Positions 18,344-55,876 are shown, counted from the stretch's first letter. The stretch is 64,000 bases of DNA from an uncultured Planctomycetia bacterium (GCA_964629655.1 CAZVQU010000002.1:162814-226813); one strand, 5' to 3'. Numbers and translations are program-made. Notes: a model not told the origin generated them from the letters alone.

Positions 18344-18371
18344 TATGTCTTAGAAAAGCTTATTCTGATTC

Positions 18372-18928: not shown

Positions 18929-18937
18929 TGATATAAT
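18929..18937 (+). promoter_or_regulatory. Putative extended -10 element (TGaTATAAT) for the only plus-strand gene
   Basis: TGnTATAAT at 18929-18937, 9 nt before the ATG at 18947, implying a leaderless or near-leaderless transcript. Confidence 0.3.
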
Positions 18938-18946
18938 CTCTGCATT

Positions 18947-39453: not shown

Positions 39454-40950
39454 TTAAAAATAAAGATCTCTCTGGCCACCCTTAATTCTCTGATAATATT
39501 CTATAACCTTAGGATAAGTCCTTGGCATAAGAGTTTTGATCTCTGCTAACTCCTTGCGAATAATTTCCTCACCATCTTTTCTAGTTTCGCCAGTAGCAAA
39601 ATCATCTAACCACTCCCTAAAGGTAAGCACAGCATTTAATTTGCAAAGTTTACCCTCCTCTCCGGTCCTTAAAAGTTCCATAATGCACTTGCCGGTTCTT
39701 CCGCAACGATAACCGGCAGTACAAAAAGAAGTGATATGGCCGGCATAAGAGAGTTCCCTTACTACCTCATCCAAGCTCCTGGTATCTCCTAAAAAGAATT
39801 GTTGCCTTTGACCTTCTTGTTCCCTATAGCGGTCACTATAGGCGCCGATACCAATACGTGTAGAGGCATCAGTCTGGGTACAGCCTAAAGGAATAGATTC
39901 TCTTCGCATCTGGGCATTTTCCCGGGCGGTAATAATCATTCCGGCATGAGGAACAGCTAATCTTATAATCGTAATCAGTTTTTTAAAATCCTGATCACTT
40001 ACTTTATAACGAGACTCTTGGGTAAAAGGTGTATTAGCTGCCGGCTCAAGACGCGGAAAAGAAATTGTATGTGGCCCAACACCAAATCTTGCTTCTAGTT
40101 CCCGTGAGTGCAGAAGAAGACTTAAAACTTCAGACTTCCAGTCATATAAACCAAAAAGAACGCCAATGCCAACATCGTCGATACCAGCTTCAAATGCCCG
40201 ATGCATACAATATAATCGCCACTGATAATCAGCTTTTAGAGTTCCTTTGGGATGAAGAGCCTGATAAGTATCGGGATGGTAGGTCTCTTGGAATACCTGA
40301 TAGGTTCCTATTCCGCTGTTTTTCAAAATTTTAAGGTCCTCAATAGATAAAGGCGCAGCATTGACATTAACTCTACGGATCTGACCATAGCCTCTCCTAG
40401 TCTTTGTTTTAACTCCATAGATTGTTTTTATGGTTGAGTTCATATAATCTATATCAGTCTGAGGATGTTCTCCGTAGACTACTACCAAGCGTTTATGTCC
40501 AATCTCACCAGCTAAAACCTCAGTCTCACTCTTGACCTCATTTAAACCAAGCATTCTCCTATGAACATTAAAATTATCTTTTCTAAACCCACAATAAAGA
40601 CAATTATTCACACAAAGATTACTCATATACAAAGGAGCAAAGGTAACTATTCTGTTATCATAAACCTTCTTCTTAACCTCTCCAGCAACCTCAGCCATTC
40701 TTGCCAGCGAATCTCTATCCTCAACACTTAATAATAGCGCTGTTTCTTCAAGCCCTAAGGTCTCAATAGCTAGAGACTTATCAAGAATATCTTTAATTTG
40801 TGCCTTAGATGGTTTAAAATTAACAGCTAAAGCTCTCTCGATTGCTTCTTGATCAATAAAAAGCCTACCCTTATCTAGGTATTTTTCTACCTGCTCTTCT
40901 TTAATCTGGCTCTTTACCCAAGAATCTGGTGAACTTGTCTTTGTAGACAT
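39454..40950 (-). CDS. Radical SAM enzyme of the ThiH/HydG (tyrosine-lyase) family, HydG-like with C-terminal Cys-containing extension
   Basis: LGLEETALLLSVED...YDNRIVTFAPLYMSNLCVNNCLYCGFR (CX3CX2C after a HydG-type ~100-aa N-terminal domain); 498 aa, longer than ThiH; C-terminal FCTAGYRCGRTGKC...LC...LNAVLTF Cys cluster. Confidence 0.6.
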   Translation of the reverse strand: MSTKTSSPDSWVKSQIKEEQVEKYLDKGRLFIDQEAIERALAVNFKPSKAQIKDILDKSLAIETLGLEETALLLSVEDRDSLARMAEVAGEVKKKVYDNRIVTFAPLYMSNLCVNNCLYCGFRKDNFNVHRRMLGLNEVKSETEVLAGEIGHKRLVVVYGEHPQTDIDYMNSTIKTIYGVKTKTRRGYGQIRRVNVNAAPLSIEDLKILKNSGIGTYQVFQETYHPDTYQALHPKGTLKADYQWRLYCMHRAFEAGIDDVGIGVLFGLYDWKSEVLSLLLHSRELEARFGVGPHTISFPRLEPAANTPFTQESRYKVSDQDFKKLITIIRLAVPHAGMIITARENAQMRRESIPLGCTQTDASTRIGIGAYSDRYREQEGQRQQFFLGDTRSLDEVVRELSYAGHITSFCTAGYRCGRTGKCIMELLRTGEEGKLCKLNAVLTFREWLDDFATGETRKDGEEIIRKELAEIKTLMPRTYPKVIEYYQRIKGGQRDLYF

Positions 40951-40953
40951 ATT

Positions 40954-41607
40954 TTATCCTGCTTTGCCCTGTCTTCGTTTAGTAAGAAATATTAAACTCT
41001 CCAACTCAGAAGCCATATCAACATTAGACACTGATACGGCTTGAGGCACCTTTAGCACTATCGGTGCAAAATTTAAAATGCCCTTTATGCCTGAAGAAGC
41101 TAATTCATCAGCAACTCCTTGGGCAGCTTCCGGAGGCGTAGAGATTATTGCAACCTTGATGTTATTCTGCTTGACAATATCCTTTATCTCTTTTATGTGA
41201 TTAATCTTTACCCCTTTTCGGGCCTTACCTATCTTATCTTTGTCAATGTCAAAAGCAAAAGTTATTTTAATGTTGAATTTAGAGAATCCTTCGAAACCTA
41301 AGAGCGCCATACCTAACTTCCCTACGCCGACTATGGCAATCGCCCGCTCTTTGTTTATTCCTAATATATTTTCTATCTCTTCAGTTAACCTGACAACATT
41401 ATAACCAACTCCTCTCTTGCCAAACCCGCCAAAGAAGGAGAGATCTTTTCTAAATTGTGCCGGAGTAACATTAAGGAACTTTGTCAGTTTATTTGAAGAA
41501 ATAATATCTATGCCCTGCTCTTTCAATCTCTTTAAATTCCGCAAATAGAGGCTGAGACGCTTAATCGTCTCCAAAGAAAAGCCATTCTTGTTATTTCTTC
41601 TTTCCAT
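40954..41607 (-). CDS. rex: Redox-sensing transcriptional repressor Rex
   Basis: Winged-helix N-terminus (TIKRLSLYLRNLKRL) plus Rossmann NADH-binding domain (IAIVGVGKLGMALL); 217 aa. Confidence 0.85.
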   Translation of the reverse strand: MERRNNKNGFSLETIKRLSLYLRNLKRLKEQGIDIISSNKLTKFLNVTPAQFRKDLSFFGGFGKRGVGYNVVRLTEEIENILGINKERAIAIVGVGKLGMALLGFEGFSKFNIKITFAFDIDKDKIGKARKGVKINHIKEIKDIVKQNNIKVAIISTPPEAAQGVADELASSGIKGILNFAPIVLKVPQAVSVSNVDMASELESLIFLTKRRQGKAG

Positions 41608-41610
41608 AAC

Positions 41611-42918
41611 CTAATTAACCTCGCTTACACCTAAATCAGTAGGAGCCCGGCCTAAAGATTTAAGTAAAGCTATAGTCTGATCAATTTGCCTATCTATTAA
41701 CTCCTTATCATAAGCCCTATTAGGATAAATTTCATACAGTTTTCGATACTTAACTGGTGTAACGTTAAGCATCAAAGAATTAGCACCCGAAAGTAACCCC
41801 TGCTTGCGCGTAGCCGGCGCATAAGTTTCTAAGGCTGTGGTTACTAGAATTTTGGCTCGCTGGGGATCGATCAGGCGGGCCAAAGCTAAGGCCTTTAAAA
41901 CCAGCTCCTCTGTAGGGCTTTTGAGATCTCCCAAAGCTGTCTCAGGGTGTGGTAGAAATGGTCCAAAAGAGTACATTTCAGCGCTTAATTCTCTAGCCAG
42001 ATGAATATCATTTATAACATCCTGGTTAGTCTGTCCGGGTAGACCAACAAGCGCACCGGTCATGATTAAATAACCCAATAAGTGAGCCTTCCTGATATGC
42101 TCTAATCTGGTTTCCAGTTTCCTCCCGGGATGAAGCCGAGCATAGATATCTGGATTGGAACTCTCAAAACGCATAAGCAGGGCTCTGGCTCCGGCAAGAT
42201 AGAGCTCCTCTAAAGCCTCTAATCCTACTTCACCAAAACTGATACAAATTAATACCGGAACCTTTTCTTTAATTTTCTTTATGGTTATAGCTAGCTTCTC
42301 AACGCTATATCCGGGATCTTCTCCACTCTGTAAGAGGAGAGCCTGAAAACCATATTTCTCTACCGCTTCAACGGCAGTTTCGATAATCTCCTCCTGAGTC
42401 ATCCGGTAACGAGGCAGATCTTTATTGTGGGTTGATATCCCACAATAAGCACACTGCTGCTGACAATGATTTGAAATTTCAATTATTCCGTGGATACAGC
42501 AGGAATTTTTATGGTATTTTTGGCGTAAGAAATTTGCCGATTTATAAAGAAGCTGGCAAGACTGTTGATCGTCTAAGTCAAGCAAATACAATAATTCGTC
42601 TTTCTTTAAGGGAATATTCTCTAGGGCCTTATCTAAAATGAGATGTAGTTTCTTGTCGCTACCCTCTCCTGAGTCCAGCCGGGAGAGACGTAAATCAACA
42701 TCTTGAAGCTCGAAGAATAATTCCTGCCAGGCTGATAAGGTCTCTTTAGCTTCATCTTCTTTAACTTTTTTTATTACAAACCCGCCTTGAGCACAGATAT
42801 AGTCTCCAACGGCAATATCATAAAACTCATTAATTGCTCTTTTCTCTTCACCGAAGTAGTCTACTAAAACCTGTTTTCCCCAAATCTTTTTTACTTTTCC
42901 GGGAATCGCGTAACACAT
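41611..42918 (-). CDS. Fusion protein: HypC/HupF-family domain (N-terminal ~75 aa) + HydE/BioB-like radical SAM enzyme
   Basis: N-terminus MCYAIPGKVKKIWGKQVLVDYFGEEKRAINEFYDIAVGDYICAQGGFVIKKVKEDEAKETL aligns with HypC (MC-x-x-VPG...VGDWVLVHVGFA...EAxxTL). Downstream, HGIIEISNHCQQQCAYCGI (CX3CX2C) and the LLQSGEDP, MRFESSNP, GLPGQT motifs are typical of HydE/biotin-synthase-like enzymes; 435 aa. Confidence 0.7.
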   Translation of the reverse strand: MCYAIPGKVKKIWGKQVLVDYFGEEKRAINEFYDIAVGDYICAQGGFVIKKVKEDEAKETLSAWQELFFELQDVDLRLSRLDSGEGSDKKLHLILDKALENIPLKKDELLYLLDLDDQQSCQLLYKSANFLRQKYHKNSCCIHGIIEISNHCQQQCAYCGISTHNKDLPRYRMTQEEIIETAVEAVEKYGFQALLLQSGEDPGYSVEKLAITIKKIKEKVPVLICISFGEVGLEALEELYLAGARALLMRFESSNPDIYARLHPGRKLETRLEHIRKAHLLGYLIMTGALVGLPGQTNQDVINDIHLARELSAEMYSFGPFLPHPETALGDLKSPTEELVLKALALARLIDPQRAKILVTTALETYAPATRKQGLLSGANSLMLNVTPVKYRKLYEIYPNRAYDKELIDRQIDQTIALLKSLGRAPTDLGVSEVN

Positions 42919-42956
42919 AATAAAACTTAAACCTATTAAAGTTAGTTGAATTATCC

Positions 42957-43199
42957 CTATTCACAATCAAAGGAAACAACTTCTATGCGCGTGCTGGGGA
43001 AAAAAATAATCTCTAAGCTAGCACCTTCAAGTATAGTCCCCTTAGCCAAAAGGTTAAAAGTCTCCCTAAACGACTCTTCTTTAACGCCGGTAAGCTCTCC
43101 GATCTTTAACCTTAACTTAGTTATATTCTTTGCCCCTTCTTCTTCGGCATGCTTAACTATGCCTTTAATTACTGGTTCTATTAAGTGAGTCTCATGCAT
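42957..43199 (-). CDS. HypA-like nickel-insertion protein, truncated (Ni-binding N-domain only, zinc finger missing)
   Basis: MHETHLIEPVIKGIVKHAEEEGAKNITKLRLKIGELTGV... aligns with HypA (MHE Ni-binding motif) but ends after 80 aa with a single Cys; no CxxC...CxxC. Confidence 0.6.
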   Translation of the reverse strand: MHETHLIEPVIKGIVKHAEEEGAKNITKLRLKIGELTGVKEESFRETFNLLAKGTILEGASLEIIFFPSTRIEVVSFDCE

Positions 43200-43653
43200 T
43201 GACTACCTCCAAAATATTTCCTGACACCTCATCTAATACCGCTTTAAGCTCCTCTGACATCTCTGAACCTAGTTCAATACTTTGAGGCTGAACCCCAAGC
43301 ATATAGATATTCGCCTCTGTCTCTTTGGTTAAATAATCCATAAACATTACCGGAGAGACATCGTGAGTAGTAAATCCACACCTTGCTATATCTTCTCCCT
43401 TTAAAATCTCGCATTCACCAGGATTCTTGCCTAGATGAACAGCATCAACAATTAAAACCGTATCGGGGTTTTCTTTGGCGATTTTACCCAGATAATTCTC
43501 AGGAGCAGTCCCGCCGTCTAAACAGATAACCTTAGCCTCATTCTTTATCTTTTCAACTAGTAAAGGTCCGAAGCCATCATCCCCGCGGATAATGTTTCCA
43601 ATACCAATAATAATAACCTTTCCCTTGATAATATCTTTCAAATTAGTTTGCAT
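43192..43653 (-). CDS. Hydrogenase maturation endopeptidase (HycI/HyaD family)
   Basis: IIGIGNIIRGDDGFGPLLVEKI...LDGGTAPEN...VLIVDAVHLG; 153 aa. Confidence 0.8.
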   Translation of the reverse strand: MQTNLKDIIKGKVIIIGIGNIIRGDDGFGPLLVEKIKNEAKVICLDGGTAPENYLGKIAKENPDTVLIVDAVHLGKNPGECEILKGEDIARCGFTTHDVSPVMFMDYLTKETEANIYMLGVQPQSIELGSEMSEELKAVLDEVSGNILEVVNA

Positions 43654-43666: not shown

Positions 43667-44272
43667 TCAGGTAGTTTCCCTTCTGCAGCTAGCGCAAAGA
43701 ATTTTTACTCGGTCGGAACGTCCTTGGTCAGCTAAGGCCGATATGATATTCTGATCTATAATGCCTAAGCGCTTGAGACGAGGAAGATATAGCGTTGGGC
43801 TGGAAAAACTAAGCTCTCCTATCCTTTTAACAATCCACTCTAGATGGTCACGGCAAGCAATAGCTTCGCCACAAATCTCACAGAGTTGCAACTCTTTCTC
43901 TATACGCTCGTCAGACTTACTGCGATCAAAAAAGGAAAGCTCCCAATCATTAGATAATTTAATACCCTGATTATCGGCAATACAGGCAGCCTCGCATTGA
44001 CCGCAGAATATACAGGTATCAGTATAGTGAATCATGACCCTTCGCGGATCACTCTTACCGTCAATAAGATCTAAACAATCAATCGCCTCTACCGGACAAA
44101 CCTCTTTACAAGCAGTACAGCCTACACACTTTTCCTCGTTAAACTTAGGCTGCCCTCTAAAATTAGGGTGAGGCTGGTGTGGCTGGATAGGAAACTTTGA
44201 AGTATAAGGCCCTTTTATAAGAGCTTTTATGGCTTCAATTAATTCTCTGATCTTTGGTAACCGTATTTGCAT
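43667..44272 (-). CDS. NuoI/MbhN-like 2x[4Fe-4S] ferredoxin subunit with Cys-rich C-terminal extension
   Basis: CVGCTACKEVCP and CIFCGQCEAACI motifs; extra CEICGEAIAC...CASC at the C-terminus; 201 aa. Confidence 0.7.
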   Translation of the reverse strand: MQIRLPKIRELIEAIKALIKGPYTSKFPIQPHQPHPNFRGQPKFNEEKCVGCTACKEVCPVEAIDCLDLIDGKSDPRRVMIHYTDTCIFCGQCEAACIADNQGIKLSNDWELSFFDRSKSDERIEKELQLCEICGEAIACRDHLEWIVKRIGELSFSSPTLYLPRLKRLGIIDQNIISALADQGRSDRVKILCASCRRETT

Positions 44273-44294: not shown

Positions 44295-44630
44295 CTAGAC
44301 TTCTCCCTCTTTATCTTCTAGATACTTATCGACAACGCTCTCTTTGCTAAGCTTCACCCCTGCCCTATGTGCACCTCTGGCTATAGCATGGGCAGCCACC
44401 GGAGAGGTTAATAACAAAAATATCATACATAAAAGTGCTTTCATTCCGGCAGCTGTAGGACCAACAACAATAAATGTCCCGAATAGAATACTGCAAGTGC
44501 CTAAAGTAACGCACTTTGTTGCAGCTTGGAGACGATTATATACATCAGGAAGACGTACCAGGCCTAAAACACCGAAAAGATTAAAAGCTAATCCTAAACC
44601 GATAAATGTCAAACCGATAATGCTACTCAT
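44295..44630 (-). CDS. Mrp/Mnh antiporter subunit G-like membrane protein (MbhC-like)
   Basis: 111 aa, 3 TM; LVRLPDVYNRLQAATK signature of MnhG/PhaG. Confidence 0.65.
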   Translation of the reverse strand: MSSIIGLTFIGLGLAFNLFGVLGLVRLPDVYNRLQAATKCVTLGTCSILFGTFIVVGPTAAGMKALLCMIFLLLTSPVAAHAIARGAHRAGVKLSKESVVDKYLEDKEGEV

Positions 44631-45009
44631 CGAACCCTCTTCCTTCTAAGTATTTAGAAAGCGCTAAAGTACTTATAAAACTCTGCAAGGCCCAGGCTAT
44701 TCCGATATCAATATACCAAGATCTCCCGGTAGAAATGGTCAGTATTGCGCACAAACCAGCAATCATAATACCCAAAATATCAATTGCCACTACACGGTCA
44801 GCACCAGTCGGCCCCTTGTAAATACGATAGAGACATAAAAAACAGGCTAGGATAAGTATGTAGCGGGCCCTTCCTACAAACCCGATGAAGGGAAGATCGG
44901 AACAAAAAAGAAAAGGAAGCGGCCGGATTATTATTAAACCTACGATCCCTCCCAAAACAATTGCGCCAATAAACCATTTAGTTCTTTTCATCTTAACCTC
45001 TCTAGTCAA
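44623..45009 (-). CDS. Mrp/Mnh antiporter subunit F-like membrane protein (MbhB-like)
   Basis: 128 aa, 3 TM, MrpF-like. Confidence 0.55.
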   Translation of the reverse strand: MTREVKMKRTKWFIGAIVLGGIVGLIIIRPLPFLFCSDLPFIGFVGRARYILILACFLCLYRIYKGPTGADRVVAIDILGIMIAGLCAILTISTGRSWYIDIGIAWALQSFISTLALSKYLEGRGFDE

Positions 45010-45499
45010 AAATCTTTTTTAGTATTTTTTCAAAGCGTTGGACAATAATTTTTGTAGCGCCTTCGGTATCTTTTGCTCTTACATTAATCCAGTGTATATA
45101 TAAAACACCACTATCCTTATCTATATCCACACTCATAGTGCCGGGGGTCAAGGTTATAGAATTAGCTAAAAAAGTAAGAGCAGTATCGCTCTTTAGGCTT
45201 GTCTTCACTTTAACAATTCCCGGTTTTATCGGTAAATCAGGATGCAATACGCGATAAGCAACATCAACATTTGCTTTAATAAGCTCCCATAAAAATACCG
45301 GTAAATAATGGGCAACGAAATACCAGTACCGCCAAGGATGCTTTAAGACATGCGGACGGGTAAGGAATAAATCTCCGGTTAGAATAGCTACAAAAGCTGC
45401 CACAAAAATTCCAGTTATAAGGTGCTGGGAATCGGGAACCCAGCTTAAAAGACACCAGCCTAAAAATGCTACCAGAAAAAGTATTATCCTACTTTTCAT
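45002..45499 (-). CDS. Mrp/Mnh antiporter subunit E-like protein (MbhA-like)
   Basis: 165 aa; LWELIKANVDVAYRVL...TLTPGTMSVDID MnhE signature. Confidence 0.6.
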   Translation of the reverse strand: MKSRIILFLVAFLGWCLLSWVPDSQHLITGIFVAAFVAILTGDLFLTRPHVLKHPWRYWYFVAHYLPVFLWELIKANVDVAYRVLHPDLPIKPGIVKVKTSLKSDTALTFLANSITLTPGTMSVDIDKDSGVLYIHWINVRAKDTEGATKIIVQRFEKILKKIFD

Positions 45500-45501
45500 T
45501 T

Positions 45502-47007
45502 CTACCTCACTGCCTCAAAAACTATCGGGCCATATTTTACACCTTTGGTGAGCACATCTGCAGCTGGTTTTAAGAAAACTTCTTTTATTCCCGGCAAAAG
45601 CAAAACTCCTCCGATAATACAGATACCGGCTAAAGCTATCATAGCCAAAACCATAAAAACAGGGACTTCTTTTATTTTGCGCCATTTTTCTCTTAGCTTA
45701 CCAAAAAAACCATACTTCATAACCTTAGTGAATGAAGCTAAAGTCAATACGCTGGCTAAAACTGCCCAAAAAGCATAACCAGGATGGCCAGCGCTTACAG
45801 CAGCAATTATAATCAACAGCTTACTCCAAAATCCATTAAAAGGCGGGATTCCGGCAATAGACATCGAAGCAGTAAGGCCAGTGGTGCTGGTTACCGGCAT
45901 TTTCTCTCTTAACCCACCCATTTTTTGTAAATCCCGGGTTCCTGCAGAATACTCTACTGCTCCCGAATTCAGAAACAAGAGCGACTTAAATATTGAATGG
46001 TTAAAGAGATGAAACAGACCGCCTAATATACCTAACGGTGTGCCTAAGCCAATGCCTAGAACAACATAACCGATTTGACTTATTGAATGGTATGCTAAGA
46101 GACGCTTAAAATCCCACTGACCAATCGCTAAGAATACTCCGATCACCATCGAAATTGCCCCCAGAAACATCAGCAAAGAAGAGATTTTTAAGCTTAATCC
46201 AATCACATTAAAAAATATCCTACAAATAGTATAAACACCTAGAGACTTTATCAGGACTCCTGAAAGCATGGCTGATATCGGAGCCGGTGCCGAAGGATGA
46301 GCATCAGGAAGCCAAGCATGAAAAGGAACTAATGCAGCTTTTAATCCGAAACCCATGATAAATAAAACACTTACTATAAGACCGATATTGCCAACGCCTT
46401 TCTCGGCCAAGATTACTGCCATATCAGCCATATTCAATGTTGAGGTATAACTATACAAGAATACAATTCCGATAAGAATAAAAAGGGAGCCAACAGTACT
46501 CATAACTGCATATTTAAAAGCAGCTTCTAACTCATGACGTTCAGTTCCGAAAGCAACTAAAGCATAGCTTGCTACTGAAGCAATCTCTAAAAATACAAAC
46601 AGGTTAAAAATATCGCCGGTAATAATTACCCCGTTCATTCCGGCTAACATCAAAAGGAATAAGGCATAAAACTTCCACTTAGAAGTATACTTCTCCATGT
46701 AATTTATCGCATAGATCGAGATTATAAAAGCAACTAAGTTTACAGTAACAAGCATGAATGAAGTTAGGCCATCAAGAACTAAGCCTATACCAACCGGCGG
46801 CTTCCAGTAACCAACACTGTAAACTACAGTTCCGTAAGAATTAGATAGCTTTACCGCAAAAATAGAGAGACAAAGTAAGGTAAAAGTAGTCAAGTTACCC
46901 AATGCATCTGGCAACCACTTTATTCTTTTACCAACCAGAGCAATTAAAAAAGCTCCTGATAACGCTATAGCTACAAAAAGAGGTATTATATTAATGCCTG
47001 GAATCAT
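45502..47007 (-). CDS. Proton/sodium-translocating antiporter-like subunit (MrpD/NuoN/MbhH family)
   Basis: 501 aa, ~14 TM, NuoL/M/N-family conserved core. Confidence 0.75.
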   Translation of the reverse strand: MIPGINIIPLFVAIALSGAFLIALVGKRIKWLPDALGNLTTFTLLCLSIFAVKLSNSYGTVVYSVGYWKPPVGIGLVLDGLTSFMLVTVNLVAFIISIYAINYMEKYTSKWKFYALFLLMLAGMNGVIITGDIFNLFVFLEIASVASYALVAFGTERHELEAAFKYAVMSTVGSLFILIGIVFLYSYTSTLNMADMAVILAEKGVGNIGLIVSVLFIMGFGLKAALVPFHAWLPDAHPSAPAPISAMLSGVLIKSLGVYTICRIFFNVIGLSLKISSLLMFLGAISMVIGVFLAIGQWDFKRLLAYHSISQIGYVVLGIGLGTPLGILGGLFHLFNHSIFKSLLFLNSGAVEYSAGTRDLQKMGGLREKMPVTSTTGLTASMSIAGIPPFNGFWSKLLIIIAAVSAGHPGYAFWAVLASVLTLASFTKVMKYGFFGKLREKWRKIKEVPVFMVLAMIALAGICIIGGVLLLPGIKEVFLKPAADVLTKGVKYGPIVFEAVR

Positions 47008-47348
47008 CCTCGCAACTCCCTAATTTTTGTAATATCAAAAGTACCGTATTTTTCATAAATTCTCATAGCAATAGCAACTAATAAAGCTGTAGTCGCTAAA
47101 CCAATAACAATAGCTGTAAGGACCAAAGCGTGCGGTAGGGGATCAACCATAGTAGAAGCAGATATGTCTGCTTGAGATGAGAATATCGGAGCTCTGCCGC
47201 CGATACGATAGGCTACCAAGATAAAAAAGAGATTAACAGCATACTCGCATATAATAATCCCCACAATAATCTTAATAATATTACGCTTTCGTAAAATACA
47301 ATATAGCCCTACGCAAAAAAGCACTAAGCAAAGAAAATATATCATCAT
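47004..47348 (-). CDS. MrpC/NuoK-like small membrane subunit
   Basis: 114 aa, 3 TM. Confidence 0.6.
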   Translation of the reverse strand: MMIYFLCLVLFCVGLYCILRKRNIIKIIVGIIICEYAVNLFFILVAYRIGGRAPIFSSQADISASTMVDPLPHALVLTAIVIGLATTALLVAIAMRIYEKYGTFDITKIRELRG

Positions 47349-47797
47349 TGTTTACTCTCCGATTCCAATTTTACTAAGACCAAGGCAACAAATATTGCAA
47401 ACAGTCCGGCACCAACCTTAAGACTAATAGCTATATTGCAAAGAGGGATAATCCCGGCACTAAATAACTCATAAGGACTTCCTTTAGTCATGAAGTTTAA
47501 GAAAAAATATCCTCCGGTAAAACCTAGCAAAGCTATAGCTAAAAACATTATTGCTCCGGCGTTCTCTAAAAATGAGACCATTCCTTTAGGGAATTTCTTC
47601 AAAGCAACCTCCTTGCCGTAAGCTAACATAAGATGGATGAAGGAAAGGGCAATGATAACCCCTCCGGCAAATCCTCCACCGGGAGATAAGTGACCATGCG
47701 TGAGAATATAAATACCGTAGAGCAATATCAAGCCTATTGTAAGACGGGTAATAGTCTTAACAATTACTGACATACCTTTGTCGTGTTCTCTACTCAT
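47345..47797 (-). CDS. MrpB/MnhB-like membrane subunit
   Basis: HGHLSPGGGFAGGVIIALSFI motif typical of MrpB; 150 aa. Confidence 0.65.
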   Translation of the reverse strand: MSREHDKGMSVIVKTITRLTIGLILLYGIYILTHGHLSPGGGFAGGVIIALSFIHLMLAYGKEVALKKFPKGMVSFLENAGAIMFLAIALLGFTGGYFFLNFMTKGSPYELFSAGIIPLCNIAISLKVGAGLFAIFVALVLVKLESESKQ

Positions 47798-48335
47798 CTT
47801 CTTCTATGACCTCATCTTGTTTTTTTCTGCCGATTTTACGCACAACAGCCAAAACTCCGATTACAGCAGTGAATAGCACTGTGGCCTCACCTAAAGTATC
47901 ATAGGCTCTAAAATCTAATATTACCGAAGAAACAACATTAGCTGCACCGGTCTGGCTTAGCCCCTTAGCAAGATATATTTTGGCAACTTTCATAATTGGA
48001 TAACCAAAACTAGGCAATTCCCTTAAAGCCTTGATAACGACAAATAAGAATATGGCGATAAAGCTGAGAGTAATAAGTGTATTTAGAAACCATCTGCCAG
48101 TAGTAGCGAAAGGTAAATCTTTCTTCAAGGTCGCTCGAATCAAAATCATCAAACACAATATCTCAACTACAAGCTGGGTAATTGCTACATCCGGTGCTTT
48201 TAAAATTAAAAAGACCATAGAAAGTGCTATGCCCACTGCACCAACGGTTACCACCGAAGAAAGTAAATCCTTCACCTCGATAGCAATTACTGCACCGATG
48301 ATCATAAATATTAGAAGAATGTATAGCTCAATCAT
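47790..48335 (-). CDS. MnhB-domain (DUF4040) membrane subunit (MbhD/E-like); start placed at internal ATG 48335
   Basis: ANVVSSVILDFRAYDTLGEATVLFTAVIGV MnhB-domain signature. The ORF-track start at 48389 overlaps the upstream gene by 49 nt, whereas the ATG at 48335 lies 5 nt after the upstream stop. Confidence 0.55.
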   Translation of the reverse strand: MIELYILLIFMIIGAVIAIEVKDLLSSVVTVGAVGIALSMVFLILKAPDVAITQLVVEILCLMILIRATLKKDLPFATTGRWFLNTLITLSFIAIFLFVVIKALRELPSFGYPIMKVAKIYLAKGLSQTGAANVVSSVILDFRAYDTLGEATVLFTAVIGVLAVVRKIGRKKQDEVIEEDE

Positions 48336-48340
48336 AAGAC

Positions 48341-49996
48341 CTACCGCAACAGAATATAGAATATTATCGCCATACCTAAAAGGCACCAAGCCATGTAGGT
48401 AGGAAGTATCCCATTGTGAATGAAACGCAATACCTTGTTAAAACCAAAAGTTATCTTCGAACCAACCTCGTAGACATCAAAGACCTTCTTCTTGGCTAAT
48501 TTGTATATAGCTTTAAGGAAACCGAACTCTTGAATCGTATGATAGAAGTCAATGCCGGAGACTCGCATATCAGGATGCTTTTCTAAAAACTCTCCTCCGA
48601 CGAAACTTTCGGTCTCTCTTGTCTTAGTCGCCTTACCAAGAAGATAGATTACCATACCAATAATAATTCCGATGACTATTAAAACTGTAGCTAAACCAGC
48701 ATCCCAAACCCCAGTGAATCCAACTCCCCCTCCTAAACTAGGGAAGACAAACATTTTAAGCGGAACTGTGAGAGCAAAGACTCCAAAAACAATACAAAGT
48801 ATAGCTAAAAAGCATTGAGGAATCCACATACTCGGACCAACATCTCTTAAAACCTTGCCGGCAACTCCTGATTCGCAAGAAGGCTGGCCCAAGAATACAG
48901 CATGAATTAACTTCATAAAACTAGCTAAGGTAAGAGCGCTACCAAACATAGCCGCAACCAACCAAACTATCCAGAGATATCCTCCACCCTTAGCAGTCTC
49001 GATTATGCCCTGATAAATCATCCACTTCGAAGCAAAGCCATTAAAAGGCGGAACCCCGGAAATTGCTAAAGACGCTATAAGAAAGGTAACGAATGTAATT
49101 GGCATAGCTTTAGCTAAACCACCTAATTTTCCCAAATCTGTAGTCCCGGCCTTCTTCTCTACTGAGCCGCCGGAAAAGAATAAACAGGATTTATAAATTG
49201 CATGATTTAACATGTGAAATAGACCACCAGCAATTCCAATTGGATTTCCGGTTCCAATACCTAAGACCATATATCCAACCTGGCTAACAGCATGGTATCC
49301 TAAGAGCCTCTTTAAATCGTGTTGAATTAGAGCCATCATAACTGCAGCTACGATCGTAATGCTGCCGACTACCATCAAAAAAGTATTCATGCCGTTGTCC
49401 ATCTGAAAGATATTCAACGATAATCTAGCCAAGAAATAAATACCAAGAAGCTTATCCAAAGAGGCTGGTAGAAAAGCAGTGACTGGTGTCGGTCCATCTT
49501 CGGCAGCATCAGGAACCCAGGTATGAAAAGGCATAGCTCCGGCCTTAGCAAAGGCACCGGCTGCCAGGTACAAATAAGCCAAGACTGCTACGTGAGTATT
49601 CAAAGGTATACTCATCTTATCAATCTGGAAATTCTTGGTTAATGCCCAGATAAAAGCTACCCCCAAAAGCATTAGGGCGTCGGTTCCACCAATTATAATA
49701 AAAGCTTTCTTTGCTGTAGCTTGAGTCTGAGCCTTTTTCCCAAAACCAATTAAAAGATACAAAAGCATACCCAAGAAACCCCAGAAGACCATAAACAGAA
49801 TAATATTGTTGGAAAAAACAGCGCCTAAAGAAGCTAAAAGGGTAAGAACTATATATAGGTAATAACGAATTAGCTCCTTGCCTCTCTTCATAAAACCTAC
49901 TGAATAGATAATCGTCAGTAGTGAGAATATTCCAATAAATATCCCTACAAATATAGAAAGTTTATCGAATTTGAAAAATTGTTCAATCAAGCTCAT
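48341..49996 (-). CDS. MrpA/NuoL-like large antiporter-type membrane subunit
   Basis: 551 aa, ~16 TM, NuoL-family core (WVPDAAEDGPTPVTAF...). Confidence 0.75.
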   Translation of the reverse strand: MSLIEQFFKFDKLSIFVGIFIGIFSLLTIIYSVGFMKRGKELIRYYLYIVLTLLASLGAVFSNNIILFMVFWGFLGMLLYLLIGFGKKAQTQATAKKAFIIIGGTDALMLLGVAFIWALTKNFQIDKMSIPLNTHVAVLAYLYLAAGAFAKAGAMPFHTWVPDAAEDGPTPVTAFLPASLDKLLGIYFLARLSLNIFQMDNGMNTFLMVVGSITIVAAVMMALIQHDLKRLLGYHAVSQVGYMVLGIGTGNPIGIAGGLFHMLNHAIYKSCLFFSGGSVEKKAGTTDLGKLGGLAKAMPITFVTFLIASLAISGVPPFNGFASKWMIYQGIIETAKGGGYLWIVWLVAAMFGSALTLASFMKLIHAVFLGQPSCESGVAGKVLRDVGPSMWIPQCFLAILCIVFGVFALTVPLKMFVFPSLGGGVGFTGVWDAGLATVLIVIGIIIGMVIYLLGKATKTRETESFVGGEFLEKHPDMRVSGIDFYHTIQEFGFLKAIYKLAKKKVFDVYEVGSKITFGFNKVLRFIHNGILPTYMAWCLLGMAIIFYILLR

Positions 49997-51177
49997 TTAA
50001 TACCTAATTTACTCTTTACTTGTGCAGTCTTCTCTTGTGAGAGCCGTATTAGATCTTCTCCGTTGTAAATCTTCTTCCCTTTAGTATTACGTACAGCCAT
50101 TCTCTCGGTACAGCAATAACAAGGGTCAATAGCTGCAAAGATTATAGTTGCGTCAGATATAGTCTGGCCAACAACAGTTGATTTATAAGTTGGTAAATTC
50201 ATAAAAGTTGGCGCTCTAACCTTATGACGAGCCGGTCGGTTAGTGCCGTCACTCTTCACATAATGGAAACACTCTCCTCTTGGCGCTTCAATCTGGCCAA
50301 TACCTTCTCCGGGAGGAATGCTCTTAATTTTAGCGTCGATCTCACCTTTAGGAAGGTTCAAGAGACAGTGTTTTATTATTTTTATAGATTCAAAGGTCTC
50401 CAAAACTCTTACTACTAACTTATCAAAGACATCACCATTGGAAGTTACAATCATATCCCAGTCTAACTCCTGGTAAGCTCCATAAGGACAATCTTTTCGC
50501 AAGTCCTTAGCTACGCCTGATGCTCTTGAGGTCGGACCCAGAGCCGAATACCTTATAGCGTCTTCTTTGGTAAGTACGCCTATTCCTTTAGTCCGGGCAT
50601 GCAACACCGGATCATCAATAACTGCCTTTTTAAGCATTATCAATGTCGGTATAATTGAATCTATTTTCTTCAAAACTGTCGGTATGTCATCTGCTTTTAT
50701 GTCTCTTCTTACTCCTCCGGGTTTAAACATAGCGTAATTATTTCTATTTCCTGATAGAATTTCCATAGCATCTAGTATTTCTTCTCTTAACTTCCAAGCC
50801 CACATGTATACTGTATTATACCCTAAGAAGTGTCCTGCTAAGCCCAACCAAAGAAGATGGGAGTGTATCCTCTCACCCTCAGCAATTATAGTTCGGATAT
50901 ACTTGGCCCGCTCGGGTACCTCCAAAGAAATAACATCCTCAACCGCCCTGGTATAAGCAAAAGGGTGGCTAGTAGAACAAATACCGCAAATTCTCTCAAC
51001 CAGAAAAGTTGATTGGTCAAAGGTTTTGCGTTCGGAAAGTTTTTCTATGCCCCGATGGTTATAGCCTACTTCAACCTCAACAGCGACAATCTTTTCACCC
51101 TCAACAGTAAGCGTAAAAAACTCCGGTTCTTCCTGCAAAGGATGATAAGGTCCTATCGGTACTATTGTTCTTGCCAT
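49993..51177 (-). CDS. Group 4 (energy-converting, membrane-bound) [NiFe] hydrogenase catalytic large subunit (MbhL/EchE/HycE-like)
   Basis: N-terminal L1 motif ERICGICSTSH and C-terminal L2 motif AIDPCYCCTERM, the four Ni-Fe-ligating cysteines absent from NuoD; 394 aa. Confidence 0.85.
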   Translation of the reverse strand: MARTIVPIGPYHPLQEEPEFFTLTVEGEKIVAVEVEVGYNHRGIEKLSERKTFDQSTFLVERICGICSTSHPFAYTRAVEDVISLEVPERAKYIRTIIAEGERIHSHLLWLGLAGHFLGYNTVYMWAWKLREEILDAMEILSGNRNNYAMFKPGGVRRDIKADDIPTVLKKIDSIIPTLIMLKKAVIDDPVLHARTKGIGVLTKEDAIRYSALGPTSRASGVAKDLRKDCPYGAYQELDWDMIVTSNGDVFDKLVVRVLETFESIKIIKHCLLNLPKGEIDAKIKSIPPGEGIGQIEAPRGECFHYVKSDGTNRPARHKVRAPTFMNLPTYKSTVVGQTISDATIIFAAIDPCYCCTERMAVRNTKGKKIYNGEDLIRLSQEKTAQVKSKLGIK

Positions 51178-51653
51178 TATACTCCTCTATCTCTAATTGC
51201 TTTCCCATCCCACTCTTTGTAGTCTTTACGTAAAGGATAAGAATCTTTCGGCCACTCATCAGGTAAAAGAAGTTTTCTTAAATCAGGATGGCCCTTAAAA
51301 TTAATTCCCAACATCTCAGTAATCTCCCGTTCAATCCAATTTGCCGCTTCAAATGAAGGCGTAAGCGAGTCTATCTCTAGCTTTGGCTTGGCTAACTTTA
51401 CTCTTAAAGAAATTACTAGATTTATATCGTCAAAGGTAAAATGATATAAGATCTCCATATGAGAACGGGCATCAACGCCGGATGCAATACTAAACCTGGC
51501 CTTTAAGTTTTTAAAAATATATTCTGCAACCTTAACAAGCGAAGAAGGCTTAATCTCGATATATACCCGAGTAGAAGACTTATCAACAAGATCAATAATG
51601 TCCTCCTTAAATTTCTGGTTAATATCTCCTAAAACGCCACTTCTGTCCATCAT
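51177..51653 (-). CDS. NuoC/MbhK-like subunit of group 4 hydrogenase
   Basis: 158 aa; NuoC-family fold (EREITEMLGINFKGHPDLRKLLLPDEW). Confidence 0.7.
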   Translation of the reverse strand: MMDRSGVLGDINQKFKEDIIDLVDKSSTRVYIEIKPSSLVKVAEYIFKNLKARFSIASGVDARSHMEILYHFTFDDINLVISLRVKLAKPKLEIDSLTPSFEAANWIEREITEMLGINFKGHPDLRKLLLPDEWPKDSYPLRKDYKEWDGKAIRDRGV

Positions 51654-52090
51654 TTCCCCTTCTTCTTGATTGTACCTTGTACCTTTCCGATTAGTTTAAC
51701 TACACCGGCAATAATAGCCTCTGGCTTAGGTGGACATCCCGGAATGTAAACATCCACCGGAATAATCTTATCTATCGGAACCGGACAATTGTAGCTATGT
51801 ATAAACATACCCCTAGACAAAGAGCACTCTCCGATTGCCACCACTAAACAAGGTTTAGGCACCTGATCATATAATCTCTTGACTCGCTCCATTGATTTTC
51901 TATTAGCTGAACCAGTAACCAAGAGCACATCAGCATGCCTTATGCTCCCGGCCAAAATCATGCCAAACCTCTCGATATCAAACCTGGGAGTAAGGCAATC
52001 CAATATCTCGATATCGCAATTATTGCAGCTGCCGGTAGCAAGATGAAAGACCCAGGGTGATTTTAATAATGCTTTTAACTTTACACTCAT
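51650..52090 (-). CDS. [NiFe] hydrogenase small subunit of NuoB type (MbhJ/EchC/HycG-like), proximal [4Fe-4S]
   Basis: GSCNNCDIE ... GECS ... GCPP cysteine pattern of NuoB-like subunits; 146 aa. Confidence 0.8.
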   Translation of the reverse strand: MSVKLKALLKSPWVFHLATGSCNNCDIEILDCLTPRFDIERFGMILAGSIRHADVLLVTGSANRKSMERVKRLYDQVPKPCLVVAIGECSLSRGMFIHSYNCPVPIDKIIPVDVYIPGCPPKPEAIIAGVVKLIGKVQGTIKKKGK

Positions 52091-52091
52091 A

Positions 52092-53015
52092 TTACTTTCC
52101 GATTAATGCTAAAGCAACTGCCAATGCGGCGATTATGGTCATCGGGCCCCAGAAAAACCGCATTGCCTGATCAATCCTTACCCGAGGATTGGTATTTCTA
52201 ATAACTGTTATGAGAGCAACTATGCCCACATACTTTAATATTCCAAAAAGTAAGTGTATCCCGTCAAACCTTAAACCGCCCATAAGAAGAATCATTAAAA
52301 AAAACGGCAAGACAAATAAAAGCATATTTTTAGTGAGTCTGTAGATAGCCAGTCCTGTTCCTGAATATTCGATTAGCGGACCGCCGACTATCTCGGTTTC
52401 AGCCTCAGGAATATCAAAGGGAACTAAAGCTAATTTAGCCTGCACACACATTATAAGCACGATGAAAGCTAATATCCCTGATAAATTTCCCAAGATTACT
52501 CCATTTTGAGCCTGGGCAGTTATGATTTCCCCTAAGCGTATAGAAAAGTTAGATTTTATAACCGGAACTAATACTGCCAAAACAAAGGGAAGCTCATAAC
52601 TCAAGATTAGTTTCATCTCCCGAGATGCCCCCAAGCTCGCTAAGGGATTACGAGAAGCAAAACCACCAATAATAATACTCATTGAAGGGATAGTTAATAA
52701 ATATAAAACTACTATTAAATCGCCAAGGAAAGTCTTACCGGGATTAATATTGTTCAGCCACAGGAGAGTAGATACTAAGATTACACCAGCAAGCCCAACA
52801 ACCGGAGCCATAAGAAAGGTCGACTTTGACGAACCGACCGGTACAAGATTCTCTTTCCCAAGAAGCTTTACAATGTCTATTAAGGGCTGCAGAATCGGTG
52901 GTCCCTTCCGATACTGAACCCGGGCAGTAACTTTACGGTCTATCCAACTAGCCAGCAACCCAATAACCGCTGTTGCCAGAAAACCAAATACTAAAAAATA
53001 GAATAAATAAATCAT
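52092..53015 (-). CDS. NuoH/MbhM/HycD-like membrane subunit
   Basis: 307 aa, 8 TM, NuoH-family. Confidence 0.75.
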   Translation of the reverse strand: MIYLFYFLVFGFLATAVIGLLASWIDRKVTARVQYRKGPPILQPLIDIVKLLGKENLVPVGSSKSTFLMAPVVGLAGVILVSTLLWLNNINPGKTFLGDLIVVLYLLTIPSMSIIIGGFASRNPLASLGASREMKLILSYELPFVLAVLVPVIKSNFSIRLGEIITAQAQNGVILGNLSGILAFIVLIMCVQAKLALVPFDIPEAETEIVGGPLIEYSGTGLAIYRLTKNMLLFVLPFFLMILLMGGLRFDGIHLLFGILKYVGIVALITVIRNTNPRVRIDQAMRFFWGPMTIIAALAVALALIGK

Positions 53016-53578
53016 GCCCTGTCTCTTTCCCAGTGAGTTGAATGAACTATCAAATTATCACCGACTAAAAATGTATTTTCGTCAAGCTCAACGCTTCCTT
53101 CTTTTAAACTTAAAGCTCCATGAGGGCAACTCTTTATACATAGAGGTTCACTCTTGGCCTCTCTTCTGTCTAAACAAAAATCACAATTATGAATCAAGTA
53201 AGGCACATGCTCAGGATATATAGTGCCATAGGGACAAGCATGGGAACAAGATTTACAACTTACACAACGCATATTATGACGTATTAACAGTTTATTTTTA
53301 TCTTCTTGCTGTTCTAAGGCATCGGCTGGACAAGAGTCAACGCAGTGAGGCTCCTCGCACCGACGACAGACAAGAGCATAGGTAGCAAGCTCAGCCACCG
53401 AGATAATACCATTATTCACCGGGCTCTGAGTGTGGTAATAATAACTGCATTCAAGCACGCACTCTTTACATTCACCAGAAGCACAAAGGTCTAAGTCAAC
53501 GAATAGCCTCCTATCCTTTGATTTTTTAGCATTTACGTTTAACTTGCCTTGATGTAATTGTTCTGCGCTTGAACTCAT
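53012..53578 (-). CDS. HycB-like polyferredoxin (four [4Fe-4S]-binding Cys motifs)
   Basis: CASGECKECVLEC, CRRCEEPHCVDSCP, CVSCKSCSHACP, CDFC...CIKSCP; 188 aa. Confidence 0.75.
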   Translation of the reverse strand: MSSSAEQLHQGKLNVNAKKSKDRRLFVDLDLCASGECKECVLECSYYYHTQSPVNNGIISVAELATYALVCRRCEEPHCVDSCPADALEQQEDKNKLLIRHNMRCVSCKSCSHACPYGTIYPEHVPYLIHNCDFCLDRREAKSEPLCIKSCPHGALSLKEGSVELDENTFLVGDNLIVHSTHWERDRA

Positions 53579-53579
53579 T

Positions 53580-54404
53580 TTAATCCCAAATTTCGTGAAA
53601 GTTCTTTATCTTATCGTAGGTAAAAACCGGACCATCTTTGCAAGCATAGTAGATTCCGATTCGACAATGCCCACACTTACCAATACCACAAGACATGTTC
53701 TTCTCCATCGAAAGGTAGATATTCTCATCGACAAAGCCCATCTCGAGGAGTTTCTTGGTGGCAAATTTCATCATTATCGGCGGCCCACAAACAACAGCAA
53801 TGCCTTTTCCGCAATCCATGCCTAAATCATCTAATATGGTAGTGACAACACCAACATTACCATTCCACTGGCTATCGCCCTTATCTACAGTAAGCTTTAA
53901 GTCTAAATCATCCCGCTGGGCCCATTCGCCCATCTCGCCTCTATAGACTAATTCTTGAGAAGTCTTACAACCACCTCTAAAAATCAGCTTTTTAAACTCA
54001 CTGCTCCTATGAAAAAGTGCATACATAAGACTACGCAGAGGTGCAAAACCGCACCCTCCTCCAACAACCAAAACTTCTTTTCCTTTAAACTCATCTAAGG
54101 GGTATCCTTGCCCCATCGGGCCCCTTACGCCAATAATATCTCCTTTCTTTAGCTGATGAATCTTCTCAGTAACTTTGCCAACCCTCATCACAGTAACTTC
54201 CATTAAGTCCTTTACCGTAGATTTTGAAGACGGAGTAAAAGGAGCCTCTCCTACCCCAGGGATAGTTACCTCTATAAACTGACCGGTAGCAAAACCGATC
54301 GGTTCCTGTGGCTTAAACTTAATAGTCTTTATGGTAGGAGTCTCCTCGATAACTTCCACAATCTCAGCTTTAATCGATCGATAAGGATTTTTACAATTAA
54401 TCAT
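53580..54404 (-). CDS. FAD/NAD(P)-binding oxidoreductase with C-terminal [2Fe-2S] (AsrB / sulfhydrogenase gamma / PyrK family)
   Basis: FNR-like fold (RFTP... VVGGGCGFAPLRSL) and C-terminal CGIGKCGHCRIG cluster; 274 aa. Confidence 0.7.
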   Translation of the reverse strand: MINCKNPYRSIKAEIVEVIEETPTIKTIKFKPQEPIGFATGQFIEVTIPGVGEAPFTPSSKSTVKDLMEVTVMRVGKVTEKIHQLKKGDIIGVRGPMGQGYPLDEFKGKEVLVVGGGCGFAPLRSLMYALFHRSSEFKKLIFRGGCKTSQELVYRGEMGEWAQRDDLDLKLTVDKGDSQWNGNVGVVTTILDDLGMDCGKGIAVVCGPPIMMKFATKKLLEMGFVDENIYLSMEKNMSCGIGKCGHCRIGIYYACKDGPVFTYDKIKNFHEIWD

Positions 54405-55481: not shown

Positions 55482-55499
55482 TTGTGAATAAAATCACAA
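55482..55499. promoter_or_regulatory. Rex operator (TTGTGAA-N4-ATCACAA) in the promoter of the hydrogenase operon
   Basis: TTGTGAATAAAATCACAA, 17/18 match to the palindromic Rex consensus TTGTGAAnnnnTTCACAA, 60 bp upstream of the first operon gene. It overlaps a putative minus-strand -35/-10 (TTGTGA-17-TAAAGT). rex is encoded in the same locus. Confidence 0.7.
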
Positions 55500-55588
55500 T
55501 CAAGATAATTAATCGTATCATACAAGAATAAACTTGTCAAACAATTTTTATGTTTTTGATTGCGTTAGGTCTGTCTTAATCTAGCAGA

Positions 55589-55876
55589 TTACCCTTTAAC
55601 ATCTACATATTTAGCTAAGGTAGGGTTGAATTTGCTCAAAAAAATCATCATTCCCCAAAGTAAAGTTGTCGCTACGACAATAAGCACTCCCAGAACTAAA
55701 TCCTTAGGCGTGTTTGCAGAAACAAGGAACAACTCGCCATTGTAAAGGTGATCTATTACTCCGAACATGGCTCCTCCGTAAAACATCAGGGTCAACCACC
55801 AAACTTTGATACTCCTGTTCCTCTTCCAAGTTAATGAAGTAACTGCGGCTGCAGCTATTGATACAACATAACACAT
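55589..55876 (-). CDS. Small hypothetical membrane protein (3 TM)
   Basis: 95 aa hydrophobic ORF. Confidence 0.45.
   Translation of the reverse strand: MCYVVSIAAAAVTSLTWKRNRSIKVWWLTLMFYGGAMFGVIDHLYNGELFLVSANTPKDLVLGVLIVVATTLLWGMMIFLSKFNPTLAKYVDVKG

Follow-up and report, generated by a model that had tools for sequence, protein, structure and literature searches.

A HydG and HypC::HydE-like radical-SAM pair at the tail of a group-4 [NiFe] hydrogenase operon, a probable module for [NiFe] maturation

A 64,000-nt stretch of DNA from an uncultured Planctomycetia bacterium (GCA_964629655.1, CAZVQU010000002.1:162814-226813; hereafter the window) encodes a group-4 [NiFe] hydrogenase in a tightly spaced single string of genes that runs from 55422 to 39454, all genes in this operon part lying on the minus strand. 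Five genes close the string (43653-39454, minus strand) and encode a HycI-type protease, an 80-amino-acid (aa) HypA, a 435-aa fusion of a HypC domain to a HydE-like radical S-adenosylmethionine (SAM) enzyme, the repressor Rex, and HydG, with intergenic gaps of -8 to 38 bp from HycI to HydG. This region is probably the maturation tail of a group-4 [NiFe] operon that is repressed by Rex, coupled to Mrp subunits and linked to NAD(P)H, with HydG and the HypC::HydE-like fusion as a conserved two-gene module for [NiFe] maturation. The original prediction had placed the five genes downstream of a group-4 [NiFe] hydrogenase, and Pfam and NCBIfam profiles confirm the genes, their coordinates and their strand. 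It also held that an [FeFe] hydrogenase, HydF, hypD, hypE and hypF are absent from the window, which agrees with a tblastn search of the 64 kb, where E. coli HypB/D/E/F, two HydF queries and [FeFe] HydA found no match, and with a reading of the open reading frames (ORFs) in the remaining window, in which hypB/D/E/F, hydF and an [FeFe] hydrogenase are likewise lacking. As the family assignments are clear-cut and the tblastn search of the 64 kb was null, the observation itself can be regarded as secure. The genes and domains of the tail are the following.

43192-43653, minus strand: HycI-type large-subunit C-terminal endopeptidase (TIGR00072).
42957-43199, minus strand: HypA, 80 aa, Ni-binding N-domain only (Pfam HypA).
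41611-42918, minus strand: HypC::HydE-like fusion, 435 aa (Pfam and NCBIfam).
42724-42918, minus strand: HypC domain of the fusion, residues 1-65 (Pfam, alignment).
41641-42633, minus strand: HydE-like radical-SAM domain of the fusion, residues 96-426 (alignment; the AlphaFold 2 (AF2) model superposes on T. maritima HydE (TmHydE)).
40954-41607, minus strand: Rex, NADH/NAD+-sensing repressor, encoded within the operon (NF003995).
39454-40950, minus strand: HydG, 498 aa, radical-SAM tyrosine lyase with a C-terminal auxiliary-cluster domain (TIGR03955).

The fusion protein begins with MCYAIPGK, and its residues 1-64 match Pfam HupF_HypC over model positions 1-65 of 65 (53.3 bits, cutoff 28.5), with a borderline score on the HypC profile TIGR00074 (47.5 bits, cutoff 48) and a match to a solved HypC, 2Z1C, at E = 2.5e-9. 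The proposed HypC-type N-terminal domain with an MC start, fused to a HydE-like enzyme, is thus borne out. Cys2 of HypC, part of its N-terminal Met-Cys, is an iron ligand, and M1, C2 and P6 of the HypC domain are invariant across 210 fusions. The position of His51 (E. coli numbering), a histidine in three distinct solved HypCs (T. kodakarensis, E. coli and 3D3R), is Gln in 177/210 fusions, including the window protein (Gln44), and His in 0/210. The remainder of the chain is HydE-like: Pfam Radical_SAM covers residues 146-307, and an alignment with TmHydE (220 bits) shows the CX3CX2C motif at C152/C156/C159, the correspondence of M315 and M383 to TmHydE M224 and M291, and retention of the residue matching Lys/Arg309. 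The radical-SAM CX3CX2C motif and the Met224/Met291 pair are kept in all of the fused domains (47/47). The AF2 model of the whole fusion has a predicted local distance difference test score (pLDDT) of 92.7 and a predicted template-modeling score (pTM) of 0.91, and its radical-SAM domain superposes on TmHydE in Foldseek with a template-modeling (TM) score of 0.94 and a root-mean-square deviation of 1.9 A. On the HydE profile TIGR03956, the window protein scores 237.9 bits, below the cutoff of 254.6, and its relatives 247-288, giving a range of 238-288 for the fused type as against 331-359 for canonical HydE of Omnitrophota.

In TmHydE, residues R54, T134 and R155 contact the CN ligands of the di-iron (Fe2) product (PMC11826987). 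When the sequences are mapped onto TmHydE, whose numbering is used here, R54 is replaced by His in 100% of the His-54-type domains (n=53), and a new invariant Cys stands two residues before it, the pair being C141/H143 in the window protein. In the same set, T134 has become Phe or Cys (Phe in 66%; Cys in the window), and R155 has become Gly or Ala (Gly in 66%; Ala in the window), with the Arg moved one position back in 83%. Among 124 canonical HydE domains, a set defined by having Arg54, T134 is found in 96% and R155 in 95%. Both groups retain the SAM-cluster Cys motif together with M224, M291 and L157. A neighbor-joining (NJ) tree of 184 HydE domains places 47/47 fused domains in one clade of 52. 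The remaining five members are fragments, one protein whose HypC-like N-terminus has diverged, and two that are genuinely unfused. Judged by these residues and this tree, the fused HydE is a paralog, a distinct "Cys-x-His / Phe / Arg-shifted" HydE subfamily with a rebuilt product site.

The original prediction proposed a survey of databases for other HypC-radical-SAM fusions; 210 were gathered in total (>200 protein clusters), spread over many phyla. A protein search covering 5.8 billion proteins returned >120 clusters at >=61% identity with the same two-domain architecture, nearly all of the named ones from Candidatus (Ca.) Omnitrophota, which argues against a frameshift artifact. Full-length fusions down to ~41% identity came from an exhaustive search of 50%-identity representatives, and a search seeded with an unfused relative revealed fusions in Ca. 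Scalindua, Ca. Kuenenia, Ca. Wunengus and Patescibacteria (including Portnoybacteria), as well as in Woesearchaeota, Aenigmarchaeota, Deltaproteobacteria and Pseudomonadota. A scan of GTDB added Fibrobacterota to the carriers, with relatives in the GTDB species set at <=86% identity. In NCBI records the fusions go by "[FeFe] hydrogenase H-cluster radical SAM maturase HydE", "HypC family chaperone" or "radical SAM protein". In three lineages the association goes further, as HypC, HydE and HydG are joined in triple fusions, all of which adjoin or sit within a [NiFe] cluster. For two of these proteins, of 881-906 aa, the cluster is 3b-like; the third (L009) comes after the group-4 cluster of an Omnitrophota chromosome that is complete at 1.52 Mb.

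The neighborhoods of these genes were annotated at 74 loci, covering 10 kb on either side of each match. Of these, L001-L072 were read by BLAST with the window proteins, E. coli HypA-F, [FeFe] HydA and two HydF sequences (L066 being the E. coli reference), and L073 and L074 from the Pfam labels of called genes. A [NiFe] large subunit lies within 10 kb in 27/33 fused-type loci versus 0/25 loci that have only canonical HydE, and HydF in 0/33 versus 15/25; the corresponding Fisher tests (5e-11 and 1e-7) overstate independence, since many of the loci are related. The fusion directly follows a [NiFe] cluster and HycI protease in ~27/33 loci. Three sorts of cluster can be told apart: Mrp-linked group-4, as in the window; group-3b-like; and, in Fibrobacterota, a small group-4 type. 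At one locus from Patescibacteria, fusion and HydG stand between the gamma and the delta/alpha genes of a 3b hydrogenase. The neighbors of an unfused variant are HydG, both [NiFe] subunits (small and large), a nickel transporter and a free-standing 72-aa HypC. The two genes, fusion and HydG, occur as a pair by themselves in Aenigmarchaeota, in Scalindua and in a metagenome-assembled genome (MAG) of Deltaproteobacteria. HypB/D/E/F homologs are found neither in the window nor in L001-L072 (L066 excluded), and none of the genes called in L073 and L074 has a HypD/E/F label from Pfam.

In L065, a fused protein (262 bits on TIGR03956) follows the NiFe genes and HycI, and beside [FeFe] HydA and HydG there is a canonical HydE (331 bits) with the beginning of HydF behind it; L014, L015 and L026 have the same layout. 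The separate canonical HydE next to [FeFe] HydA in loci of this type, together with the product-site changes and the profile scores, indicates that the fusion is not the [FeFe] HydE of the cell. Two further loci have features of their own. In the Ca. Kuenenia MAG (L073), a full-length HypA and a cobW/HypB-like gene lie near the fusion, and a type I restriction-modification system (11393-19311) intervenes between the HypC::HydE-like gene and the group formed by hypA, the cobW/hypB-like gene and a NiFe fragment. L019, a NiFe-3b locus without full HydF, contains after HydG an 85-aa ORF (12757-13014) that corresponds to the HydF C-terminal Fe-S domain. A conserved mini-HydF was considered and rejected, as this piece is seen in L019 only; it is a probable remnant of a former hydG-hydF pair.

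The second member of the module is HydG proper. The 498-aa protein scores 451.2 bits on TIGR03955 (cutoff 312.15) and 258.8 on ThiH, whose cutoff is 380, and its alignment with T. italicus HydG (4WCX; 428 bits; residues 21-480) spans the full length, C-terminal domain included. That domain is absent from ThiH. Profile comparison with the HydG, ThiH, HydE, BioB, HmdB and PylB families, by which the original prediction proposed to test its assignments, thus identifies the 498-aa protein as HydG and rules out classification as ThiH or BioB; ThiH, BioB, PylB and HmdB were rejected on profile scores for both radical-SAM proteins. The N-terminal radical-SAM CX3CX2C motif is present as CVNNCLYC. The auxiliary-cluster motif CX2CX22C is replaced by the variant SFCTAGYRCGRTGKC...C (CTAGYRC...GKC), in which the second Cys has become Gly and new Cys residues appear at +3 and +9, and this variant is common to all 12 group-4-linked HydGs. 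The HydG subclass with CTAGYRC (39454-40950 in the window; L052 and L063) spans [NiFe]- and [FeFe]-linked genes, and one Omnitrophota HydG clade mixes NiFe-only with NiFe+FeFe loci.

The original prediction took this arrangement to suggest a hybrid route in which radical-SAM enzymes serve a [NiFe] and not an [FeFe] hydrogenase. That notion is supported for the HydE-like partner by its separate, remodeled clade, the [NiFe] linkage, the constant lack of HydF, the coexistence with canonical HydE and the triple fusions, but it does not extend to a specialized HydG. Fusion-linked HydGs are polyphyletic in the NJ tree, falling into several clades that each have [FeFe]-linked sisters, and the CTAGYRC part of the motif also occurs in the two [FeFe]-linked HydGs L052 and L063, leaving the extra Cys at +9 as its sole part specific to the group-4-linked set; a [NiFe]-specific HydG was rejected on these grounds. 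These two findings weigh against a dedicated [NiFe] module, and so do several others. The known product of HydG is Fe(CO)2(CN), not the Fe(CO)(CN)2 of [NiFe] sites, and the ligand-exchange step is speculative. Five related loci have an [FeFe] hydrogenase within 10 kb of the fusion, which makes co-regulation of two maturation systems possible, and four Fibrobacterota-type loci and a few others are without HydG within 10 kb. The absence of hypD/E/F covers the 64-kb window and the +/-10 kb neighborhoods, and that of an [FeFe] hydrogenase and hydF the 64-kb window. Finally, nearly all sequences come from MAGs, all trees are NJ only, and the linkage statistics are not phylogenetically independent.

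A mechanism for the module can be proposed, all of its steps being drawn from sequence and from the known chemistry of HydG and HydE. As in [FeFe] maturation, HydG would cleave tyrosine and assemble an Fe(CO)2(CN) synthon bound to cysteine. The HydE-like domain, in which the SAM cluster and the equivalents of Met224, Met291 and Lys/Arg309 are retained, would then remove the cysteine handle by a radical reaction. Since the product site that joins two such units for HydF has been rebuilt, it is proposed that a single Fe-carbonyl/cyanide unit goes to Cys2 of the tethered HypC, and the new Cys-x-His pair may hold the iron unit on its way there. HypC would put the Fe unit into the large subunit, the zinc-finger-less HypA would add nickel, and HycI would trim the 35-residue C-terminal tail. 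One possible way to a ligand set with a single CO and two CN would draw on free cyanide that HydG releases (PMC10114646).

In its strongest form, the idea of a [NiFe]-dedicated module would mean that streamlined anaerobes (Omnitrophota, the candidate phyla radiation (CPR), DPANN and anammox bacteria) build the iron half of the [NiFe] site without HypD/E/F, obtaining CO as well as CN from tyrosine via HydG and loading the fused HypC with the HydE-derived enzyme to which it is attached. This is possible, and we advance it tentatively. The main rival, which we regard as rather unlikely, is that canonical HypD/E/F encoded elsewhere make the cyanides and that the module delivers only CO, or an Fe-CO unit, to the HypC/HypD scaffold. 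HypC is normally encoded beside hypD, as the E. coli reference locus illustrates, yet hypD is nearby in 0 of ~41 loci of the fused type; His51 of HypC has been lost in 210/210 fusions, and HydG makes CN besides CO. Moreover, the module is frequent in the very small genomes of CPR and DPANN, where two systems would presumably be costly. On the other hand, the lack of HypDEF covers only the +/-10 kb neighborhoods, the HypA and cobW/HypB-like genes of the Ca. Kuenenia locus indicate that classical parts can coexist with the fusion, and a recent review leaves the anaerobic source of CO unresolved while regarding HypCDEF as universal (PMC12134894).

A more skeptical view would treat the co-location as incidental: HydG and the HydE-like enzyme would serve an [FeFe] hydrogenase with HydF elsewhere, the HypC domain would work classically with HypDEF, and the fusion would reflect shared regulation of hydrogen metabolism. 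HydG does pass the HydG equivalog cutoff, many fusions are named "[FeFe] hydrogenase maturase HydE" by NCBI, and [FeFe] HydA lies 5-6 kb downstream of the fusion in L003, L014, L015, L026 and L065. The same loci, however, hold a second, canonical HydE, and L065 HydF too; HydF is near 0/33 fused-type loci as opposed to 15/25 canonical ones; the fused clade has lost the conserved product-site triad; and [NiFe] operons adjoin or enclose the triple fusions and the Patescibacteria locus. Indirect support comes from Omnitrophota MAGs with a group-4g hydrogenase, for which that single hydrogenase and no other was reported (PMC8542988). An incidental arrangement thus fits poorly with the paralogy, the changes in the site and the pattern of linkage, and is highly unlikely. 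Very improbable, too, is a different product, such as a non-standard ligand set like Fe(CO)2(CN), another modification or an unrelated sulfur/iron cofactor, an idea that can draw on the invariant Cys-x-His pair gained by the remodeled site and on the versatility of a scaffold whose HydE relatives are fused to selenium/sulfur (Se/S)-carrier domains, but that is opposed by the standard L1/L2 cysteine motifs and protease-dependent tails of the large subunits, by the role of HypC, to our knowledge solely that of an Fe(CN)2CO carrier, and by data that point to no other acceptor.

A role of the HydG and HypC::HydE-like pair in [NiFe] maturation can be set against the systems already described. With the [FeFe] maturases HydG, HydE and HydF it shares a full-length HydG, with its radical-SAM motif and C-terminal auxiliary-cluster domain, and the HydE fold (TM score 0.94), SAM cluster motif and M224/M291 equivalents of the fused domain. 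It differs in that the module is never next to HydF, the window has no [FeFe] hydrogenase and the partner is a [NiFe] hydrogenase, and the fused enzyme differs from canonical HydE in the replacement of R54, T134 and R155 and in the HypC domain on its N-terminus. The resemblance to the HypC/D/E/F system lies in the Met1-Cys2 and Pro6 of HypC, in the usual operon position of HypA and a HycI-type protease and in the standard large subunit. Unlike that system, the loci searched have no hypD/E/F or hypB nearby, HypC is covalently joined to a radical-SAM enzyme and is without His51, and HypA has no zinc domain. A precedent for alternative ligand sources is HypX, an aerobic, accessory route to the CO ligand from formyl-tetrahydrofolate that is present in only some organisms (PMC12134894). 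Like HypX, the module would be an accessory supply of a diatomic ligand to HypC-bound iron; unlike HypX, which is oxygen-tolerant and draws carbon from the C1 pool, its enzymes belong to an unrelated family of anaerobic radical-SAM proteins, with tyrosine as the proposed carbon source. The HmdB/HcgA proteins of [Fe]-hydrogenase cofactor synthesis likewise represent the recruitment of a HydE/BioB-like radical-SAM enzyme to a non-[FeFe] hydrogenase, but the fusion scores 69.6 bits on the HmdB profile TIGR03957 (cutoff 320.9) versus 238 on HydE and has no Hmd/Hcg context.

Consecutive maturation enzymes are also found in one chain in HydEF of green algae, in a HydF-HydE protein (L049) and in a HydE-HydG protein (P0142). 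Unlike the HypC::HydE-like fusion, P0142 (803 aa) has a HydE part with the canonical R/T/R residues and is without a HypC domain, and the 829-aa HydF-HydE protein of a Verrucomicrobiales MAG (L049, 8483-10972) serves an [FeFe] system, with [FeFe] HydA ~2 kb downstream. A further variation was seen in P0192 and P0243 (and P0200 by signature), HydE-like proteins that have an N-terminal Se/S-carrier domain (PF11823) in the place of HypC and R-T-N at the product site; these constitute another, undescribed, class of HydE fusion.

Upstream of the maturation tail, the operon comprises a promoter region and the structural genes of the hydrogenase.

55512-55540, minus strand: sigma-70-like promoter, TTGACA, 17 nt, TACGAT, read from the sequence ~90 nt upstream of the first operon gene; putative function.
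55482-55499, no strand assigned: candidate Rex operator TTGTGAATAAAATCACAA, with one mismatch to TTGTGAA-N4-TTCACAA, 12 nt downstream of the -10 box; predicted binding.
53012-55422, minus strand: three electron-input genes (Pfam).
49993-53015, minus strand: group-4 [NiFe] hydrogenase core, with NuoH-like, NuoB-like small, NuoC-like and NuoD-like large subunits (Pfam, motifs).
44295-49996, minus strand: Mrp/Mbh-type membrane subunits (MrpA/D-like, MbhD/E, MnhB, C, E, F, G) (Pfam, ORF translations).
43667-44272, minus strand: NuoI/HycF-like 2x[4Fe-4S] subunit (profile matches).

The group-4 assignment follows from Pfam Complex1_49kDa together with NiFeSe_Hases, Oxidored_q6, NADHdh, Proton_antipo_M and MbhD/E, and from the cysteine motifs L1 (RxCGxCxxxH) and L2 (DPCxxCxxR), which in the 394-aa large subunit read RICGICSTSH and DPCYCCTER, the latter followed by a 35-aa C-terminal extension. 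The Mrp/Mbh gene order is identical in L001, as read from Pfam labels. Of the three electron-input genes, by Pfam, one encodes a 341-aa Fer4_22 protein that resembles sulfhydrogenase beta, another a 274-aa FAD/NAD-binding protein that is gamma-like and has a DHODB Fe-S domain, and the last a 188-aa protein that resembles 4Fe-4S ferredoxins. The operon (53012-55422 and 44295-53015) thus represents an Mrp-coupled, membrane-bound group-4 [NiFe] hydrogenase headed by sulfhydrogenase-type beta (Fer4_22) and gamma (FAD/NAD-binding) subunits, and the combination suggests an NAD(P)H-linked, ion-translocating enzyme. Beta- and gamma-like homologs (28% and 41% identity) are also found in L007, ~4 kb downstream of its HydG and Rex.

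Rex scores 257.9 bits on NF003995 (cutoff 126) and occupies the same position in 17/33 related loci. The candidate operator at 55482-55499, ~60 nt ahead of the first operon gene, is the only site in the 64 kb with <=1 mismatch to the Rex operator consensus. Together with the NAD(P)H-type input subunits at the operon head, it fits a hydrogenase that is switched on as NADH accumulates, and the operon may accordingly be Rex-repressed and active at high NADH. Just upstream of the promoter, a 95-aa hydrophobic ORF (55589-55876, minus strand) has a strong AGGAGG ribosome-binding site; it, too, begins with MCY, yet it is without similarity to HypC.

The two short maturation proteins were also as predicted, a HypA without a zinc finger that adjoins HycI. 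HycI scores 121 bits on TIGR00072 (cutoff 47), and its large-subunit substrate carries 35 residues past DPCYCCTER; in related loci, HycI genes accompany every large subunit with a C-terminal extension and none of those that end without one. HypA begins with MHETHLIEP, matches only positions 1-67 of 112 of the Pfam HypA model and scores 59.4 bits on TIGR00100 (cutoff 88.1). It has one Cys and no zinc-finger CxxC pairs, and the MHE Ni-binding motif is kept in all relatives. The exact 80-aa form without CxxC recurs in at least 12 related loci and is, therefore, a genuine variant and not a pseudogene; Fibrobacterota relatives have a 110-aa HypA in which the CxxC pairs are retained.

Elsewhere in the window, a 1054-aa homolog of elongation factor G (15179-18343, minus strand) has an N-terminal extension of ~360 aa, with a hydrophobic, transmembrane-like start and then a Lys/Glu-rich, coiled-coil-like stretch up to the GTPase domain. 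A very acidic 455-aa protein (21534-22901, minus strand) combines a Cys/His-rich N-terminus, a C-terminal transmembrane segment and an internal tandem duplication of ~360 bp, which is visible as two near-identical 119-aa shadow ORFs on the plus strand (21901-22260 and 22261-22620). Finally, a 910-aa PAS histidine kinase has four consecutive single-domain response-regulator genes (120-123 aa each) downstream of it (5770-7314 and 7329-10061, minus strand), and these are followed by a receiver-EAL protein at 4638-5759.

Full-text literature searches turned up no publication that describes a HypC-radical-SAM fusion or an action of HydG/HydE on [NiFe] enzymes. A study of CPR genomes noted an unexplained protein family near 3b hydrogenases with "homology to hypC" (PMC7304191), and a 2025 review presents HypA-F as the complete anaerobic machinery, leaves HydG and radical-SAM enzymes unmentioned and calls the anaerobic source of the CO ligand "the most pressing" open question (PMC12134894). 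The HydG and HypC::HydE-like pair could explain the origin of this ligand in anaerobes. It provides a testable candidate, in which enzymes known to make Fe-CO/CN units are fused to the iron chaperone of [NiFe] hydrogenases and embedded in [NiFe] operons. If this is correct, the [NiFe] cofactor would have a second, radical-SAM route of synthesis, and [FeFe] and [NiFe] maturation would be connected by an evolutionary bridge. It would also correct a widespread annotation error, as the name "[FeFe] hydrogenase maturase HydE" could mislead metabolic reconstructions, and would offer a compact set of about four small genes with which [NiFe] hydrogenases could be produced heterologously. For the organisms themselves, it would explain how hydrogenases mature in those with tiny genomes.

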